Below, piece after piece: positions 2,975 to 13,202 of a stretch of 13,202 nucleotides of DNA (position 1 is its first letter; every line of letters starts with the position of its first letter). The stretch lies in IMG/VR virus record IMGVR_UViG_3300045988_115487, positions 1 to 13,202 of that record. One strand, written 5' to 3'. Origin of the DNA: a virus. The notes below the pieces were generated by a model, which was given only the letters and a program-made list of their open reading frames with translations, had not been told where the DNA came from and did not search any database. Both the position numbers and the translations under genes were made by a program.

Positions 2975-3622
2975 TCACCCCTTTATAAATACAGAACTCC
3001 AATATTGAGCATACTCATAACGTTCTGGCTGATTCAGGCTTGCCGGTCTCAGATAGTTATACATGAATGCATTGGTCAGAGTTTTCAAGTCATGGTTTCC
3101 AGTTGCCCATTCACGCCAAGTCATATTGTAACTAGATGTAGCATACCATTCCGGTTCAATACCTCTATTGGCATCTCCCACACTCTCTTGATATTCGGCG
3201 AACAACACAGCGCACTGTTTTCCACCATCGTACCAGTCGTCATGCTTGCCGTATAATAAATCAAGCACTGAGAGTAGTTTTGTTCCGGGTGTCCACTGTA
3301 CAAGTCCTCTACCGGGTCCATCTGCAGTGGTTCCACCGCCAACCTCCAATAGTCCGGGATTCATGGTACTTTCTTTCTCCATGTTTCCAAGTAACGCCAT
3401 ACGCGCAGTAGCACTCCAACCTCTCTCTTTGAAATAATTGTTAATGTTTGCGGCATTTTGCATCATCTTATCACGGGGAAAATATCCCTGTACTGTGTCA
3501 GTAACAAGAACGTTCCAATTTCCAGATGGCAGGGGAATTTCACCGCCACCACCACCGGAACCGCCTTTTTTAAGTCCTATCAATAATGCCGAATTATTAT
3601 AAGGATATCTCAACGAACTCAT
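2975..3622 (-). CDS. Tail-associated peptidoglycan hydrolase (phage tail lysozyme fold, like the N-terminal domain of phi29 gp13)
   Basis: 215 aa with an ATGA overlap onto the upstream gene. The motifs LLGNMEKESTMNPG and GRGLVQWTPG match the GNxxxES...GxGLxQWT signature of the phage tail lysozyme family. A GGSGGGGG linker follows a short N-terminal segment. Confidence 0.75.
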   Translation of the reverse strand: MSSLRYPYNNSALLIGLKKGGSGGGGGEIPLPSGNWNVLVTDTVQGYFPRDKMMQNAANINNYFKERGWSATARMALLGNMEKESTMNPGLLEVGGGTTADGPGRGLVQWTPGTKLLSVLDLLYGKHDDWYDGGKQCAVLFAEYQESVGDANRGIEPEWYATSSYNMTWREWATGNHDLKTLTNAFMYNYLRPASLNQPERYEYAQYWSSVFIKG

Positions 3623-5010
3623 GCGTAATAAAATCCTCCTTCCAAGTAATTTTTAATTGTGGTTATTTCTTCTGAATAGGCACCAATGATATTAACATTG
3701 CCATTTTCCACGATATAGAAACCGTTCCCCATTGATGAGGGCACACCATTCTTCATGTAAGGTCTACCGTTATCGGCGTTATCCTCATCTGTAATCTCAT
3801 AACAATCGGTTATAAGCTGAGTATTTACGAGCATTGATGCAACTGTGTCCGCCGATGAAAGTGCAGTAGCTTCTGCTTTAGTGAGTTGTAAACCTAAATT
3901 CAACAGTGATGAAGCAGATCCAATCCAGTTACCCGAAACAATACCGCCAACTGCCCCGACTGCTGACCCGATAGCACCCGGCAAGTCATTTTTAATATCA
4001 CCAATGGAAATAGAAAAACCAACTTTTCCGGGAACATTTGCTAACATGTATTTTTCAGTACCTTTTACGATGTATACATATGCGACCGCACCACCTGTTC
4101 TGCAATCTATATCACATTGTATTGTCAGCGTGTTCTCAATGATTTTCGAATAATTCAGTTCAATACTTCCAAATCCTTGTATGAACAACTTTCCCCGTCT
4201 ATACGGATAGCTGTTTAGGTATGAACCTCTCGTTCCTGCTTGCGGATGACTAGGAACATTTACAGTTGTTGATACACGATCAATAGCGTTTGATGATAGT
4301 CTAACTGCTATGGCGTCCACTTCCCACCACCCCAAACCGATTTTCGATTCTATGACTACTTCATCTTCCACAATATCGTAGGGAAACCATAATACAGATG
4401 TTATATATTGTGCAGGGTTGAAAACCATTTTTGCAATATCTTCACCTAAATCCGCTAAATCACCAGTGCCCATCCAAGTCATAGATGAAAATACACTTTC
4501 AGAAAATTTTACAAAACCTGCGTAATTAAATTTATAGTATTCACACATACCATTTTTACCTATAACCCCTACCACAAAAGTTCCTGATTTAATACTGTTA
4601 GCTTGTGGAAAAAGAGGTTGATTTGCCATAGTTGCGTTCCGTGTAGGGGCGCTGAATGACGGATATAAAGCGTCTGATATTCTACCATCAAAATTGGTAC
4701 TAGTTCTTATGATGTAATAACTCTTCTCGCCTATTTCATCTTTAAAACTTGCCATCACATCTACTTCCATATGGCACACCCACAACCCCGTACTGTATTC
4801 CCAATCATCCACGAAATAATATCGTTCAAATTCCGGAATATAGCAGTAATTGATTTTTTTCGGACTCCAGTCTTTCGCAAACTGAAATGTGATTGTAGGC
4901 TTTAAAATGGAGGAAGGGGCTCTTAAAGCCCCCTCATAATTTTTACCACCACTCGTGGGAATCCATGTAGAATTTTTCGCTTTACCGACATTAAAACATG
5001 TCACTATCAT
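3619..5010 (-). CDS. Tail knob / distal tube protein, phi29 gp9-like
   Basis: 463 aa with TAGGAGG 7 nt upstream of the ATG. The N-terminal region YCYIPEFERYYFVDDWEYSTGLWVCHMEVDVMASFKDEIGEKSYYIIRT parallels phi29 gp9 [55 protein letters not shown] as recalled. The gene lies between the capsid and connector genes. Confidence 0.7.
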   Translation of the reverse strand: MIVTCFNVGKAKNSTWIPTSGGKNYEGALRAPSSILKPTITFQFAKDWSPKKINYCYIPEFERYYFVDDWEYSTGLWVCHMEVDVMASFKDEIGEKSYYIIRTSTNFDGRISDALYPSFSAPTRNATMANQPLFPQANSIKSGTFVVGVIGKNGMCEYYKFNYAGFVKFSESVFSSMTWMGTGDLADLGEDIAKMVFNPAQYITSVLWFPYDIVEDEVVIESKIGLGWWEVDAIAVRLSSNAIDRVSTTVNVPSHPQAGTRGSYLNSYPYRRGKLFIQGFGSIELNYSKIIENTLTIQCDIDCRTGGAVAYVYIVKGTEKYMLANVPGKVGFSISIGDIKNDLPGAIGSAVGAVGGIVSGNWIGSASSLLNLGLQLTKAEATALSSADTVASMLVNTQLITDCYEITDEDNADNGRPYMKNGVPSSMGNGFYIVENGNVNIIGAYSEEITTIKNYLEGGFYYA

Positions 5011-5025
5011 ACATGTGCCTCCTAA

Positions 5026-6222
5026 CTAATCGAGTAAGAAAACTACACCGTTTTCCGTGAAGTCATTGTAATATCTGTCATTGAAATGCCAGAAAATGTT
5101 ACTGTATCCGCCTCTTGCATTAAACGGTGATGGCGCTGACCATTCACCATAAGTTGTGATACCGACAGCTTCCTCATCGAATAATACTCCAAAAATATTG
5201 GAAGTAACTTCCCCCTCAGTATCAGAAACGACATTTCCGTCGGAGTTCATGTACGATGCTTTTACGTTGATTCCATCTGAACTGTCAATATTCTGCCAAA
5301 ATCCCACTTTTTCATGGTCTGCCATTTTAAGATAGCTGTCGTTAAAGATAGAGGACATAACAGTAGTGTCAATATTGTTCAGTTCTTCTGAATACAGATA
5401 CAATTTCTGCTTGTTGTATGGCGTATGCCTAGAAATCTCTTTTCCCGTCACATTAATGTGGAATTTTTGTGTCCTCTCAGTCATCCAATCGGATACTGTC
5501 TTAATATACCCTGTTGCCCATTTCATAAACGGCACAAAATTCTCTGGTTGTTTTACCGTTTCAGTAGTCAGCGTGGTTCCTGCCACATCATTGTATTTTG
5601 CCACAAGATGGATAACGTTGTCGGGGTCACCTTTTACTTTACCACCGATGAAGTTCACAAGCGTCATTCTTGCTGTTGCTTCATGCGCCTGTTCGATCAG
5701 ATCAGATGCATTTGTCATAACCATAGTGACGAACCTTTGAAATTCCTGTTCATTCTGCAGAGCAACGTTTAACTGGTCTCTAAACAGTGTAATATGTCTC
5801 TGATATACGTTTTGTCCGTAAAAATTTGTTTGAAGCACTTTCGGAATGGCAACCACCTGGTCGTCCACACTCGCACCGTTTTTCAAATCATATCTGTCAT
5901 CTTTTTCCCAATCAGAATCTGCGATGTTAAGTTTTCGCACGTGGTTTCCGAATCTCATATTATCCTGATACAAACCCTTGAACTTTCTGGAATACGGTCT
6001 GATAGAAAAAATGGTTCTGCTGAGCACCTGAGAAATCGCACCTAATAGTGGGTCAATTCCTAATCCGAGTGCAGTGGTGGCAACCGAAGTGAAATCACTG
6101 GTCGCAATTGCACTAATTGTGTTTCTACCTGTTGCCTGATTTACAATTTCATTTAAAACAGCTGCTGAATTAAAATTGTCTACATTAGGAGAATCTAACG
6201 ATAATTTAGTAACTGAACCCAT
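5026..6222 (-). CDS. Major capsid protein, phi29 gp8-like core without the C-terminal Ig-like domain
   Basis: 398 aa with AAAGGAGTG upstream of the ATG, directly downstream of the scaffold-like gene. Segments such as SRKFKGLY and FQRFVTMVMTNASDLIEQAHEATARMTLV resemble the gp8 segments LKKFKKG and [28 protein letters not shown] as recalled. It is the largest non-tail structural ORF. Confidence 0.75.
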   Translation of the reverse strand: MGSVTKLSLDSPNVDNFNSAAVLNEIVNQATGRNTISAIATSDFTSVATTALGLGIDPLLGAISQVLSRTIFSIRPYSRKFKGLYQDNMRFGNHVRKLNIADSDWEKDDRYDLKNGASVDDQVVAIPKVLQTNFYGQNVYQRHITLFRDQLNVALQNEQEFQRFVTMVMTNASDLIEQAHEATARMTLVNFIGGKVKGDPDNVIHLVAKYNDVAGTTLTTETVKQPENFVPFMKWATGYIKTVSDWMTERTQKFHINVTGKEISRHTPYNKQKLYLYSEELNNIDTTVMSSIFNDSYLKMADHEKVGFWQNIDSSDGINVKASYMNSDGNVVSDTEGEVTSNIFGVLFDEEAVGITTYGEWSAPSPFNARGGYSNIFWHFNDRYYNDFTENGVVFLLD

Positions 6223-6903: not shown

Positions 6904-7098
6904 TCACTCCTTCACGTCCAGTTTATCGGCAAGTTTCTGAATTGCCATTGTATTGTTGTTCAGAACCTCTGTGAGGTTGTGTATCTCTTCTTTGTGGTTT
7001 TCAGTCTCTCTGTACCATAAATAAAAGGTTACTGCAAGGCAAGCTACAGGTACACCCAAAGAGCTAAATAACTGACTTACTGCCTGAATCCATTCCAT
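6904..7098 (-). CDS. Holin, BhlA/UviB-like (one N-terminal TM helix plus a charged coiled C-terminus)
   Basis: The track ORF begins at a TTG at 7146. The ATG at 7098 (MEWIQAVSQLFSSLGVPVACLAVTFYLWYRETENHKEEIHNLTEVLNNNTMAIQKLADKLDVKE, 64 aa) has GGGGGGAG 7 nt upstream. Its size and layout, one TM followed by a helical charged tail, match the BhlA/UviB holin family of Firmicutes. Confidence 0.65.
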   Translation of the reverse strand: MEWIQAVSQLFSSLGVPVACLAVTFYLWYRETENHKEEIHNLTEVLNNNTMAIQKLADKLDVKE

Positions 7099-7198
7099 AT
7101 TGTCACTCCCCCCTCTTTTGAATTGAGGGGAAGTGCTGTGAGCCAACCAAACTCATGTACACGGGTTCCGCCCGTTGGTTTTGTACCACTCCCCCTAC
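7099..7198 (-). promoter_or_regulatory. Structured intergenic RNA: anti-anti-SD / anti-SD / SD arrangement upstream of the holin
   Basis: In minus-strand RNA, CACUUCCCCU (7135->7126) can pair with either of two partners. One is upstream AGGGGGAGUG (7196->7187), giving 10 bp with one G.U and enclosing the hairpin ACGGG-CGGAA-CCCGU (7175->7161) and an AACCA/UGGUU helix. The other is the downstream holin SD copy AGGGGGGAGUG (7114->7104), giving 10 bp with one bulged G and an 11-nt loop. No U-tract follows either helix. Confidence 0.5.
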
Positions 7199-7204
7199 AA
7201 CGAT

Positions 7205-7233
7205 AGAGTATCACATCTTGAAATAATTGTCAA
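7205..7233 (-). promoter_or_regulatory. Possible internal promoter (TTGACA-17-TACTCT with TG extension)
   Basis: On the minus strand, TTGACA (7233->7228) is followed by a 17-nt spacer ending in TGA, then TACTCT (7210->7205). The -35 is consensus and the -10 is weak, partly compensated by an extended TGn. The site lies at the 3' end of the ATPase gene, and its predicted start falls at the 5' edge of the structured element. Confidence 0.3.
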
Positions 7234-8266
7234 GTAAATATTTTGATTCAATATCAGAAAAACTTACTAACCCGTCAAGGTACATCCCCCAGACCCATAT
7301 GAACTTGTGTCGGAAAGCGATTAAATCTCTTGTTGATGTGGAATAAGTAATTTGTGGCGAACCCTGTAAGTGTTGTGTGATATACAATTTTTCCTTGCTT
7401 TTATGGGTGTATACGGTTATTTCACCGACTGTCACAATGGGGACGTACTCGTTTATTGGCTCTGATTTGATATCCGAATAATCCTCTGCATAAAAATCAT
7501 TCTGGATTGACATCTTGTAAAAATCGCTGTCTTTGCCAACCATTTTGTATACCGCTGTCTCAGATTTTGCCTGTGAAATCGGGGAGTTGGCAAGATTGAT
7601 AAGGATAATACCTCTATCAGGCAGATAGCTGAATTCCTGCCCTGTTTTATGCATATCAGTGACTTTACGGATTAATCCTAGTTTTGCAAATATATCACAG
7701 TTTGCGTTTTCGCTATTTGACGCACATATGAGCTGTAAAGGTTTTTCCCCCACAAGCTCTCGATTTCGGTTTATGGTTTCATATCCATTTAATAGCGCAA
7801 TCGTGGCGTTTTTCAACTGAGGCTCCGTCTTTTCTGGAATAAATTCATCGTAAAACATCAACTCAACGTCTGCCGCTCCGAAACCTCTTAAATTGGATAT
7901 CGTGCCAAGTGCCGCGGAATAGCCAAGTGGTTCCCCTGAGTTTGTATATTTTTTTGTTTTCTCATCAAATTTTGTATCATAAAAACCTGAGTACATTTTG
8001 TTAATTGGTGACGGTGTAATGCGTCTACCGCAGTCCGCGTTATATTGCTTAAATGGGTTGAATTGTGGTGTGCGAATCATATCTATTTGAGTTTGGCGAG
8101 TTCGTAGGTAAATAAATTTTTTATTATTTTCCACGGCGTGTTTCAAAATACCGTATGTTTTTCCTGTTCCTCTGCCACCCCATATAAAGATGAAAGGACA
8201 CCCTGTTTCCAAGATGCCCTTTATATTCACATAACCGTTACTGTCGTACATTTCAGGTTTTTTCAT
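7211..8266 (-). CDS. DNA packaging (encapsidation) ATPase, phi29 gp16-like
   Basis: 351 aa. Walker A is FIWGGRGTGKTYG and Walker B is ELMFYDEFIPEK (phi29 gp16: IVFDEFIREK). NRNRELVGEKPLQLICASNS parallels gp16 FRNRERVRCICLSNA. The ATG overlaps the upstream stop (ATGA). Confidence 0.9.
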   Translation of the reverse strand: MKKPEMYDSNGYVNIKGILETGCPFIFIWGGRGTGKTYGILKHAVENNKKFIYLRTRQTQIDMIRTPQFNPFKQYNADCGRRITPSPINKMYSGFYDTKFDEKTKKYTNSGEPLGYSAALGTISNLRGFGAADVELMFYDEFIPEKTEPQLKNATIALLNGYETINRNRELVGEKPLQLICASNSENANCDIFAKLGLIRKVTDMHKTGQEFSYLPDRGIILINLANSPISQAKSETAVYKMVGKDSDFYKMSIQNDFYAEDYSDIKSEPINEYVPIVTVGEITVYTHKSKEKLYITQHLQGSPQITYSTSTRDLIAFRHKFIWVWGMYLDGLVSFSDIESKYLLDNYFKM

Positions 8267-8916: not shown

Positions 8917-8945
8917 ATAATAGCATATGTGAACGTGTATGTCAA
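8917..8945 (-). promoter_or_regulatory. Sigma-A/sigma-70-type promoter (TTGACA-17-TATTAT) driving the p6-like gene and downstream genes
   Basis: On the minus strand, TTGACA (8945->8940) overlaps the polymerase TGA stop. A 17-nt spacer and TATTAT (8922->8917) follow. Downstream come an A-rich leader and the GGAG RBS of the 8871 ATG. Confidence 0.8.
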
Positions 8946-11053
8946 GCCTTTTCTTTAGTATTTTTTAAAAAATCGTGCCATAAGTCAACACTATTAAGAA
9001 CGTTTAAATATTCCAGTGTAAGCCCTACTGTATATTCAGAGGGTCGTATAACTACATTTCTGGTGATATACACGCTCTTGTCAGGGTTGGCAGGGTCTGG
9101 ACTATAATAGCCATAGTCTGTATCATTATAAACGGATTCCGTGCCACCTGCATCCCTGAATGTGGTTCCGATTTTCAGAGCTTCCAGACCACCCATTTTT
9201 TGCAGTTCCACCGCACCTTTTTCCTTTTCCACACCTGCTATTGTGATTTTGAGTCTACCGTTTTTTTCCTGCGCGTATTTTTTTGCACCTAGTGTAATAA
9301 ATCTATCCGACGTGCCCTCATATTCATACACGCCTAAATAATGTTCCACGCCTTTTGGGTCTGAAGCATGACCGCCATTATCTATGGAATCCTCCTTTAA
9401 TCGGATATTCAGTTCATCAAATTTATCCTTGATTTTGGGGTAACGCTCCGTCATCAATATTTTACATGAATCGGTATCACAATAAACAAAATCCTCGCCC
9501 GCGATGTTTACGGCAAGCTTGAGTCTCTGTCTGGCATGAGCAGTTACCCAACACCCCCACGCATACAGCATGAACGCTCTTTTGTTGTATTTCGCTAACT
9601 TTTCCGCTGTATCCCCATCCTCAACTGAAAACGGCTTGTCAGTGTTACTGTAAATAATATCAGGCTTGACCGGGTTTTGTGCCGCCATGCCATATAACGC
9701 ATTTATCAACTCTTTTGCTAGAGCGTATTCAAACTCCTTCCCTTTTACACCTTTTAAAGATGTTTTATCTGTAAACAAACTTTTCACTAGTTCCCTCAGA
9801 GATTCTGGTAGATAACCATATCCCGCTGTATAAAAATCTGTAAGTTCTGCCGTATCCCAGACGTATTCACCTTTTACAATCCCAAAATCGATATCATTTA
9901 GAGTGCATGAGTATTCACGTGCTGAGAGCAAGCGTCCGTTGTCCCAAACAGATTCGGTGCTTATGCAATACCCCTTATCTTTTGTCAGATAAGGCGCACC
10001 GTAATATACATCTTTTTGCCTGATATTTCGGAAATGGAACCGCCCCACGTATGCCTTGTGAAATTTTGTCCACCTTTCGAGGTCGTCCATACCGCAATTT
10101 CCCTGCCGCACAAATTTTGTCATTGGAAATTCGCAATTAAGCATAACGTCCGGATAAGAGCTTGCCCGGTCGAATGACGCAACGTTGTTGAGTATTTTTC
10201 CAACGTGATACCTGTTTGCATGCGTGTCACCACCCCTGAACTCTTCTCTGAGTAACGTGTATAAGCTCGTGTCACACATCATATTATGCAGTTTTTTATA
10301 ATTGTACTGTTTCATAGCTTGCCTTGCTTCTCTTCTGACATAGCCAGTAGAGGTTAATGGGAGAGTGTATAAGGTATCGTTATTATCCGTCAATCGTTTA
10401 TGCATTGCCTGTAATAATCCTATCACATCGTTACACCCGTATTCAATTTCCCTAGTTGATAATTCTGTCCACGGGTAACGTTGTTTATTATAATCAAAAT
10501 CTTTCAGCTTCTGATTCTCTACCCCACTATCACTCAAAAACTTGTCAAGACTTTTGTGCGTTTGCATATACGTACACCGGAACTCTAAATTCCCTTGCAT
10601 ATGATTTCCTGCTCTTATTCTGAGTATTTTACGAGGTTTGAGCGCAAACACCTCTTCTGGCTTTATTTCTATGTGTGAACGCAAAAACTGAAATTCGTAT
10701 GACAGGTTGTGCACAAAAGTCATTGTAATAAGGTGTTCATCTTCAATGCCTGTAAACAGTTCTTCGAGTTCGTCCCAATTTCTGCCGTACACGCATATTA
10801 TCTCATTATCGTCTAGTAATACGGCAAACTGCCATAAATACATAATGCTCTGTTCGATTCCAGAAAGTCGTGTAGTTTCAATGTCAAAAGCGCATATGCA
10901 ATTTCGGTACGACTGCTTTGCGAAGCGTTGTTTTCCTCTCATGTTAGGAGTTCTGTATATCTTCTGTATTCTATGTATCAATTCTTCTCTTTGCTTTTTG
11001 CCACTCCCTATACTGATTGAGTAATTCATCACCAGATTTTTCACCTCTATCAA
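8942..11053 (-). CDS. Family B DNA polymerase, protein-primed type (phi29 gp2-like)
   Basis: Readable motifs: Exo I CAFDIETT, Exo II HNLSYEFQFL, Exo III YGCNDVIGL, motif A FDRASSYPDVM (DxxSLYP-like), motif B KELINALYGMAAQ (Kx3NSxYG-like), motif C VYCDTDSCKI and KxY LGAKKYAQ. The start is uncertain. 11053 is a TTG, the ATG at 11029 has GAGGTG 12 nt upstream, and the ATG at 10942 would remove the overlap with the upstream gene but has no RBS. Confidence 0.95.
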   Translation of the reverse strand: MIEVKNLVMNYSISIGSGKKQREELIHRIQKIYRTPNMRGKQRFAKQSYRNCICAFDIETTRLSGIEQSIMYLWQFAVLLDDNEIICVYGRNWDELEELFTGIEDEHLITMTFVHNLSYEFQFLRSHIEIKPEEVFALKPRKILRIRAGNHMQGNLEFRCTYMQTHKSLDKFLSDSGVENQKLKDFDYNKQRYPWTELSTREIEYGCNDVIGLLQAMHKRLTDNNDTLYTLPLTSTGYVRREARQAMKQYNYKKLHNMMCDTSLYTLLREEFRGGDTHANRYHVGKILNNVASFDRASSYPDVMLNCEFPMTKFVRQGNCGMDDLERWTKFHKAYVGRFHFRNIRQKDVYYGAPYLTKDKGYCISTESVWDNGRLLSAREYSCTLNDIDFGIVKGEYVWDTAELTDFYTAGYGYLPESLRELVKSLFTDKTSLKGVKGKEFEYALAKELINALYGMAAQNPVKPDIIYSNTDKPFSVEDGDTAEKLAKYNKRAFMLYAWGCWVTAHARQRLKLAVNIAGEDFVYCDTDSCKILMTERYPKIKDKFDELNIRLKEDSIDNGGHASDPKGVEHYLGVYEYEGTSDRFITLGAKKYAQEKNGRLKITIAGVEKEKGAVELQKMGGLEALKIGTTFRDAGGTESVYNDTDYGYYSPDPANPDKSVYITRNVVIRPSEYTVGLTLEYLNVLNSVDLWHDFLKNTKEKA

Positions 11054-12753: not shown

Positions 12754-12777
12754 TTTCGTACCCCTTTCACTCAATTT

Positions 12778-13045
12778 CAGGGAATAGTACTGAGTCCTCT
12801 CGCTCGCTTAATTCATCCGCTTCACAGCTAAATCAAGGATTAACGTCTAACTTGGCATTAGCTGGTGATTTTCTACTAAGTATCACCACTGTGCGTCATT
12901 GTCCTACTGCTCTCACTTTCTTTAAGTCCTTTACCGGGTACTTATTCTTCACACGCTCATTCCGATTTGTATCGGCATAACTGCCATGTTACTAACGTGT
13001 AGCCCTATGGGTTCCCGATCTTTCCTGCTTTCTATTCCCTGTTAC
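12778..13045 (-). ncRNA. Candidate structured non-coding RNA (pRNA-like candidate) or long structured 5' leader
   Basis: About 265 nt with no ORF of 60 aa or more and no RBS-preceded ORF on either strand, beginning a few nt downstream of a consensus promoter. The ends pair perfectly over 10 bp: CAGGGAAUAG (13041->13032) with CUAUUCCCUG (12787->12778). Internal helices include UGGUGAU/AUCACCA (12888->12882 with 12869->12863, 12-nt loop), CAGCUAA/UUAGCUG (12864->12858 with 12831->12825) and CCGAU-ACAA-AUCGG (12975->12962). No terminator is visible at the 3' side. Confidence 0.35.
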
Positions 13046-13129: not shown

Positions 13130-13202
13130 CGTGTCCGTCATAGACATACACATGTGTCCGTGTGGGGAAGAAATTTGTCCGTCCACCACGGACTTGAGTA
13201 TT
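13130..13202. repeat. Right inverted terminal repeat (73 bp)
   Basis: 13130-13202 is the exact reverse complement of 1-73 and ends exactly at the window edge. Confidence 0.97.

Follow-up and report, generated by a model that had tools for sequence, protein, structure and literature searches.

What does the short region between the packaging ATPase gene and the next gene of this phage genome do? In the window (the whole stretch of 13,202 nucleotides analysed here, read on its minus strand), an SD-like sequence occurs twice in this region, with one complementary sequence between the two copies. A sequence-only reading had interpreted the three boxes as an RNA switch that times the translation of a holin, and therefore lysis, with ribosomes terminating at the ATPase stop codon biasing the choice between two folds. 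The question is whether the boxes are themselves the functional unit or parts of another structure.

The phage genome and the competing folds at the locus

The 13,202 bp of the window make up a complete linear phage genome, whose genes all lie on the minus strand. Its perfect 73-nt terminal inverted repeats (1–73 and 13130–13202) indicate that the linear genome is complete and of the protein-primed type. Terminal repeats of ~74 nt are likewise present in the relatives L073 and L028 (L001, L026, L190, and so on are the labels of the relative loci fetched for comparison). The genes include those for a type-B protein-primed DNA polymerase (8942–11053), a Gp16-type DNA encapsidation ATPase (7211–8266; Pfam PF05894, E = 9.9e-12; PHROG 2150 terminase, E = 8.7e-33), a phi29-type major capsid protein (5026–6222), a tail lysozyme (2975–3622), and a GP10 connector (2053–2973). 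The Pfam families PF05894, PF25622, PF03175, and PF05352 represent the packaging module and the protein-primed features. This gene set, together with the terminal repeats, led us to classify the phage as a very small phi29-like podovirus.

The same genome carries a full-length RAGATH-8 RNA (RF02687; 12778–13041, minus strand; 200.9 bits, E = 1.5e-53). A TTGACA-17-TATTAT promoter at the left end immediately precedes it, and the first early ORF comes next. RAGATH-8 behaves as a discrete insertion, because ~279 nt of the window (12757–13035) correspond to 26 nt in L023.

The three boxes were found on the minus strand exactly where they had been reported: the SD region of the downstream ORF, AGGGGGGAGUG (7114–7104), its upstream SD-like copy, AGGGGGAGUG (7196–7187), and the anti-SD box, CACUUCCCCU (7135–7126). 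The hairpin ACGGG-CGGAA-CCCGU is indeed present at 7175–7161, and the ATPase stop codon, also correctly placed at 7213–7211, lies 15 nt upstream of the first box. CACUUCCCCU pairs either with AGGGGGAGUG (10 pairs) or with GGGGGGAGUG (7113–7104) across the SD, and the two 10-bp helices are mutually exclusive in the window, as proposed. For a transcript running from 7196–7198 into the downstream ORF, the anti-SD:SD state was the MFE structure (-31.8 kcal/mol), and the state with the upstream helix, when forced with the SD region included, had an energy of -30.2/-30.9 kcal/mol. The fold computation that the sequence-only reading had recommended thus gave two states nearly equal in energy, which makes the region bistable in the window genome. 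The probability that the SD is paired was ~0.85–0.99, and the SD was buried in the MFE structure also for transcripts including the 3' end of the ATPase gene. We agree that the structure is not an intrinsic terminator: no U-tract follows 7126, and a terminator scan of the minus strand was empty in the interval. An intrinsic terminator of the ATPase operon was thereby ruled out in the window, there being no U-tract after the GC-rich hairpin.

The three-way-junction RNA and its promoter in the phage family

A blastn search of the ATPase-to-holin region against 50,697 GenBank phage records found no cultured relative. Because this search at the DNA level gave nothing, relatives were gathered via the ATPase protein. 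By protein, the closest cultured phages were the Amedibacillus phages AD70P2 and AD70P3 (12.3 kb, Guelinviridae; ~31% ATPase identity; the AD70P2 record is OP172638), and ATPase identities of up to 49% were found in unannotated human faecal contigs. The ATPase protein retrieved 27 IMG/VR contigs, and an alignment of diverse ATPases used as the query revealed at least 467 ATPase relatives in IMG/VR. A further 19 whole contigs were taken from one clade. The comparison set comprised more than 110 related phage genomes, and the relatives gathered were all 12–15 kb in size and derived from gut and rumen metagenomes.

Comparison of these genomes showed that the upstream box and the anti-SD box match because one is the 5' and the other the 3' strand of helix A, which closes a 71-nt three-way-junction RNA (7126–7196, minus strand). 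A covariance model, R1, was built from 20 diverse members, and the window RNA scores 73.7 bits with it (E = 2.9e-17). R1 gave exactly one match in each genome that it recognised, and without exception this match was located immediately 3' of the ATPase gene, on the same strand. The 100 loci yielded 57 matches (E = 4e-19 to 3e-6), and a further clade gave 19 of 19. Of the loci missed by R1, 40 of the 42 in the L190–L231 block possess a 110-nt variant at the same place. R1 gave no match in AD70P2, Clostridium innocuum phage CI644P2, or phi29; in AD70P2, a divergent version with the same layout was recognised by eye. Essentially all family members, down to 30% ATPase identity, have the RNA, and with this distribution it is a core gene of a large family of 12–15-kb phi29-like gut and rumen phages.

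In isolation, the window RNA folds to a three-way junction as both the MFE and the centroid structure (-29.0 kcal/mol, z = -2.25). Helix A is formed by the 5' strand at 7196–7187 and the 3' strand at 7135–7126. It consists of 10 uninterrupted pairs in the window and of 14–17 pairs with a 1–6-nt bulge in the 5' strand in L173, L187, L189, and the L190 group. The 5' strand of helix C, GUAC (7183–7186), pairs with 7160–7157 (94.1% of cells paired); its 3' strand, also GUAC (7157–7160), is supported by covariation, and the variants in the relatives include GCUU/AAGC, GCAC/GUGC, and GGUC/GACC. Helix C leads through a CE-type bulge, AAAACCA (7176–7182), into the E hairpin, ACGGG-CGGAA-CCCGU (7161–7175), of which 98.9% of cells are paired and all four pairs covary. 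The E loop, CGGAA (7170–7166), is invariant or nearly so in the alignment. The D hairpin, UGAGUU-UGGUU-GGCUCA (7139–7155), presents the loop UGGUU (7149–7145), which is complementary to AACCA (7180–7176) of the bulge.

Covariation was evaluated with 47 distinct sequences, in an alignment that was fitted to the model and thus favoured the modelled helices: 94.5% of cells were paired, compared to 62% for shuffles and 31–46% for slid controls. The covariation score was 0.809, against 0.197 for shuffles, and was reached by none of 500 shuffles. Changes on both sides were found in 24 of the 26 pairs, and compensatory changes in all 10 pairs of helix A. The pairing between the bulge and the D loop is absent from the covariance model and is therefore an independent test. 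In this pairing, 96.8% of cells were paired (slid controls, 17–32%), the score was 0.897 versus 0.201 for shuffles, and the four standard pair types each occurred at three of the four positions. Examples of bulge/loop combinations are AAACCAA/UUGGUUU, GAAAC/GUUUC, GGUCAA/UUGACC, GUGC/GCAC, and ACGC/GCGU. In the 110-nt variant, aligned with MAFFT without any model, 96.2% of cells were paired and the bulge–loop pairs also covaried (GUACA/UGUAC, UGUGC/GCACA, and GGGUAA/UUACCC). Only seven columns are invariant among the 20 diverse members, four of which are in the distal E loop. The covariation shows a three-way-junction fold in which helix A is formed from the ends of the RNA, helix C leads with a 5' bulge into hairpin E, and hairpin D completes the junction.

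Searches against Rfam gave only chance-level matches for the window, the RNA interval, and the 110-nt variant, and no family fits either subtype; self-cleaving ribozymes (hammerhead, twister, pistol, and hatchet) gave no Rfam match at E ≤ 10. A scan with the E-hairpin pattern AACGGNCGGAANCCGT found mostly a coding region of unrelated ~11-kb phages along with chance sites, and was set aside, although it did reveal L065. A home-made structure-descriptor scan recovered the true members together with 1–3 false matches per genome strand, and for this reason it was not applied to other phi29-like families. A coding role was also rejected: the 29-codon frame running through the RNA is broken by indels in close relatives, and the substitutions fit a paired RNA.

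The promoter of the RNA overlaps the end of the ATPase gene. The -35 hexamer, TTGACA (7233–7228), lies within the last codons of the gene and is separated by a 17-nt spacer from TACTCT (7210–7205), which is part of an extended -10, TGaTACTCT (7213–7205), whose TG comes from the ATPase stop codon TGA. TTGACA is encoded by conserved C-terminal L-D codons of the ATPase (LLDNYF motif; 7214–7240, minus strand). Since these codons encode the -35 and the stop codon supplies the TG, the end of the ATPase and the promoter constrain each other. The window promoter does not appear in a simple promoter-scan list, because its -10 matches the consensus at only three of six positions. The proposal of a weak promoter at 7233–7205 adjoining the upstream box nevertheless proved sound, as it has a counterpart in every relative. 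TTGACA occurs 16–18 nt upstream of a -10 in nearly all relatives, in which the hexamer at the same position is TATGAT, TATAAT, or TACAAT, and the -10 ends 6–10 nt before helix A in 46 of 52 distinct upstream sequences. This spacing would place the transcription start at the first base of helix A. The layout after the ATPase gene is constant in every lineage: a near-consensus promoter, 6–10 nt, and then the junction-closing helix.

Several lineages carry further elements around the RNA. A 14-bp palindrome, GTTTCACGTGAAAC, was found in 75 of 276 fetched loci (L174 3766–3779; L190 3718–3731 and ~3752–3765; L001 1464–1477; L256 3687–3700; and many others). In the L174 clade it lies in the spacer of the RNA promoter, between -35 and -10; in the L190 group two tandem copies precede the holin-like gene; and in close relatives it occurs in the early region. 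The palindrome resembles an operator to which a phage regulator would bind; in the window it is absent, even with three mismatches allowed. In the distant relative L065, the ATPase gene is followed by a second unit (5720–5840) before the three-way-junction RNA is reached: a TTGACA-17-TATACT promoter, ~100 nt, and a strong terminator, GGCAGACC...GGTCTGCTTTTT. This unit may be another small RNA gene. In L264 (6205–6600), two small ORFs (~64 and ~66 aa, the second cysteine-rich) are located between the ATPase gene and the RNA promoter. This two-ORF insertion occurs in part of the L174 clade and places the promoter within the end of the second ORF.

The 3' side of the RNA also differs among lineages. 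A terminator or U-tract follows the RNA only in the L190 group, L232/L240, and L173, the last of which has a run of seven U after helix A; the window has neither. After the longer RNA variants, there is a hairpin with covarying stems and a conserved loop, GUGUCAnAGC, followed by a U-tract (L190 3683–3718; L192, L216, and L232). This hairpin may exceed a plain terminator and is possibly a second RNA domain.

Possible functions of the RNA

The gene downstream of the RNA, a 64-aa holin-like ORF (6904–7098, minus strand; ATG 7098–7096), is the first of the late/lysis block. The label stems from a weak match to PHROG 2429 (E = 2e-4), and no Pfam family was matched. Homologues of this ORF follow the RNA in most relatives, in keeping with the gene order assumed earlier, whereas its identity as a holin depends on that single PHROG match. 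In L253, the usual small ORF is replaced by an unrelated 120-aa ORF; we read this ORF as encoding a multi-pass membrane protein and the ORF after it as amidase-like. The distance from the RNA to the next start codon is 24–53 nt in most lineages.

Judged against the relatives, the upstream helix certainly exceeds a chance match, and the duplicated box does not. Among 24 close relatives (95–98% ATPase identity), the exact SD copy is found in one genome, the window itself; the extra AG that makes the SD a copy of the box is unique to it, and the others have a GGGGGUGA-type SD. The energy of the anti-SD:SD duplex was -17 to -20 kcal/mol in the sub-clade of the window, -7.5 to -13 kcal/mol in other close relatives, and -5 to -13 kcal/mol in distant ones. 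The mean for cognate pairs was -10.05 kcal/mol versus -9.24 kcal/mol for non-cognate pairs. Because cognate pairs are no better than non-cognate ones, the match reflects generic pyrimidine–purine complementarity rather than co-evolution. The suggested search for covariation in relatives thus gave a divided answer: the upstream helix is supported at 10 of 10 pairs, whereas the anti-SD:SD pairing is not conserved. The SD copy lies outside the conserved element, and its extra match to the box is, as far as the compared genomes indicate, lineage-specific. Occlusion of the SD may damp translation of the downstream ORF in read-through transcripts of this phage, as a lineage-specific side effect.

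The literal three-box switch, in which holin translation and lysis are timed by the two folds and biased by ribosomes terminating at the ATPase stop codon, is consistent with the boxes, the energies, the 15-nt distance from the stop codon to helix A, and the burial of the SD in transcripts that include the ATPase 3' end. As the root purpose of the element, however, we consider it very unlikely. Apart from the restriction of the SD copy to the window and the weak basis of the name holin, the strength of the pairing ranges from -7.5 to -20 kcal/mol even within a clade of 95–98% identity, and what is conserved is the three-way-junction RNA and not the boxes. The RNA persists in L026, where the holin SD lies 91 nt away, and in the L190 group, where an intrinsic terminator, two palindromic operator copies, and a separate -10 stand between the RNA and the holin-like gene. 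A broader regulatory explanation is that the RNA is a cis-acting leader of the late/lysis operon, a protein- or ligand-binding fold that would act as part of the mRNA and set translation of, or read-through into, the first late gene by lineage-specific alternative pairings. In the window clade, the SD would pair with the 3' strand of helix A; in other clades, a spacer motif next to the SD would pair with the E-loop region; and the 110-nt variant would use its terminator. We regard this as possible, though somewhat unlikely. The RNA always lies directly after its promoter at the head of the late block, close to the next start in most lineages. Promoter and RNA stay with the holin-like gene in L264 despite the extra ORFs after the ATPase gene, and the arrangement is kept in L253 despite the unrelated ORF. 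The bistability in the window points in the same direction, as does the ability of the SD region in the L174 clade to pair with the 5' strand of helix A. A 6-bp SCCGGA/UCCGGS complementarity with one covarying position was matched by 0 of 300 shuffles in 7 of 18 scorable lineages, and three-way junctions with a loop–bulge tertiary pairing occur in riboswitches. On the other hand, no alternative pairing is common to the family, and the SD pairing energies show no preference for the cognate partner. Helix A, with its 10–12 GC-rich pairs, forms with a probability of ~1 in distant lineages, even with the SD included, and is thus unlike a ligand-gated P1. Few junction nucleotides are conserved, the invariant part being the distal pentaloop, and the L190-group terminator and operator-controlled promoter, like the 91-nt gap in L026, separate the RNA from the gene.

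The spacer motif mentioned above, UAUCCGGS, is found 3–8 nt upstream of the SD and 10–15 nt after the RNA in four clades (L233 ~3640; L246 ~3628; L236 ~3622; L243 ~3637), and is absent from the clade of the window. It could form 6 bp with CGGA of the E loop together with the two final bases of the E stem. Its S position covaries (GCCGGA/UCCGGC versus CCCGGA/UCCGGG), with CCUGA/UCAGG in L242. The motif hints at a cis interaction with the ribosome-binding region. A search for duplexes between the whole RNA and the downstream sequence was abandoned, since it gave long, messy duplexes that were mostly no better than those of shuffles.

The explanation that we favour is that the 71-nt RNA is a miniature pRNA-like packaging RNA, the functional counterpart of pRNA, to which we assign a probability of about 50%. 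According to this proposal, the sigma-70-type promoter at the end of the ATPase gene would start the RNA at helix A, and the RNA would be used in DNA packaging by the neighbouring Gp16-type ATPase. In the lineage of the window, it would presumably be made as the 5' end of the late transcript and released by processing. A discrete small RNA would need such processing, because there is no terminator and the next gene follows at a short distance in most lineages. We favour a packaging RNA because of the phi29 order of elements, the presence of the protein partners, the universality of the RNA, and the lack of a rival structured RNA in the genome. RAGATH-8 was rejected for this role: among the close relatives, L007 alone shares the insertion with the window, and 10 other family genomes lack it. 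The conserved promoter, the L190-group terminator with its separate operator-bearing promoter, and the U run of L173 argue for independent transcription. The covariation fits a bulge–loop pairing within one molecule and one between molecules alike; pairing within the molecule is conceivable, as in some three-way-junction riboswitches, because helices C and D are equally short (~4 bp) and set the bulge and the loop at the same height. The short helices, the lack of an RKR patch, the failure of the covariance models to match across the two families, the mostly missing terminator, and the UAUCCGGS complementarity count against a packaging RNA, and we have held our confidence at one half for these reasons. 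The packaging and cis-leader roles are not mutually exclusive.

A wider proposal, whose probability we would place slightly below even, is that a minimal pRNA of ~70 nt, unrecognisable by sequence, is core to a large clade of 12–15-kb phi29-like gut and rumen phages. pRNAs would then not be confined to Bacillus phages. In many members, the RNA would form the 5' end of the late/lysis mRNA, so that a single transcript would couple motor-RNA supply with late-gene expression.

The RNA could instead be a 5'-terminal stabiliser that protects the late mRNA from a 5' exonuclease, or a trans-acting RNA unrelated to packaging, for instance a host-factor or defence-system decoy. Its 5' end is buried in a stable helix, and the promoter is strong and looks constitutive. 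A stabiliser would need neither the covarying pseudoknot nor the invariant loop, and counter-defence elements are usually accessory, whereas this RNA is found throughout the family; we consider both of these roles very unlikely.

The RNA family, which is absent from Rfam and combines very strong covariation with a pRNA layout beside the ATPase gene, appears to be new. According to a 2024 review, pRNA is known only from phi29 and related Bacillus phages (PMC11476376). A survey with Infernal in 2025 reported 12 new pRNAs and named the phages phi29, GA1, DLc1, BC-5, and vB_BceP_LY3 (PMC12670572). Our full-text literature searches found nothing else on pRNA-like RNAs in Guelinviridae or gut phages. 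The five phages named in the survey are, we take it, all Bacillus phages. To our knowledge, no RNA component of a viral DNA-packaging motor is known besides pRNA, which is also a workhorse of RNA nanotechnology. The new family occurs in hundreds of the smallest known tailed phages, and its cultured carrier AD70P2 makes the requirement for the RNA directly testable. If it is a packaging RNA, it would be a minimal natural pRNA, and the RNA-dependent motor would predate the split of these lineages. A cis-acting leader would instead constitute a new regulatory RNA class heading phage lysis operons, and if the function is unrelated to packaging, the RNA would be a new class.

Comparison with known RNAs

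The closest parallel is the pRNA of phi29 (RF00044). Both RNAs belong to phages with a Gp16 ATPase, a GP10 connector, a phi29-type capsid protein, and protein-primed replication. In both, helix A is formed from the 5' and 3' ends and closes a three-way junction. The order of elements, A, C, 5'-side bulge, E, C', D, and A', is that of the prohead-binding domain of phi29 pRNA, with the same handedness (as judged from the RF00044 structure line). The bulge and the D loop are Watson–Crick complementary and covary in both, and the letters of the window (AACC/GGUU) even coincide with those of phi29. The window RNA also resembles phi29 pRNA in having its own sigma-70-type promoter and in the weak conservation of its sequence relative to its fold. 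For pRNAs in general, weak sequence conservation, a conserved fold, and covarying loops have been described (PMC12670572). In phi29, the bulge–loop pairing takes place between molecules and produces a ring that links the Gp16 ATPase to the connector (PMC5066667).

The differences are also considerable. The covariance models match in neither direction (RF00044 on the window or R1 on phi29). RF00044, which scores phi29 itself at 145 bits, was without a match both in the whole window (E ≤ 1) and in 7060–7260 (E ≤ 10). The window RNA is 71 nt long as opposed to 120–174 nt, with 4 bp instead of 9 in helix C, 4–6 instead of 6 in D, and 10 instead of ~22 in A. Helix A lacks the CCA-type bulge in the window lineage; in pRNA, an essential bulge in the 5' strand of the long helix A engages the ATPase. 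The E loop is a conserved CGGAA pentaloop, unlike that of phi29. The gene follows the ATPase gene and heads the late operon, whereas that of phi29 is at the left end of the genome, and the window lineage has no terminator. In phi29, the basic RKR patch of the connector is needed for pRNA binding; the N-terminus of the window connector has no such patch.

Three-way junctions with a loop–bulge tertiary pairing are also known in riboswitches, and in translational leaders of the purine/THF aptamer type, the 3' strand of P1 competes with the SD-sequestering helix. Riboswitch leaders of this kind share with the RNA described here a location in the 5' UTR, a size of ~70 nt, a P1-like closing helix, and a tertiary loop pairing. 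A further parallel, seen in the window, is that the SD can be sequestered when the 3' strand of the closing helix switches partner. The RNA departs from these leaders, however, in the length and high stability of its closing helix, in its variable junction nucleotides, and in an alternative pairing that relatives do not conserve. Searches matched no Rfam riboswitch model, and in some lineages a terminator and a new promoter precede the gene. RAGATH-8 (RF02687), encoded by this phage as well, resembles the three-way-junction RNA in that it is structured, heads an operon, and immediately follows a strong promoter. It differs in its unrelated fold and its length of 264 nt, and it is an accessory insertion of ~279 nt, whereas the three-way-junction RNA is universal in the family.
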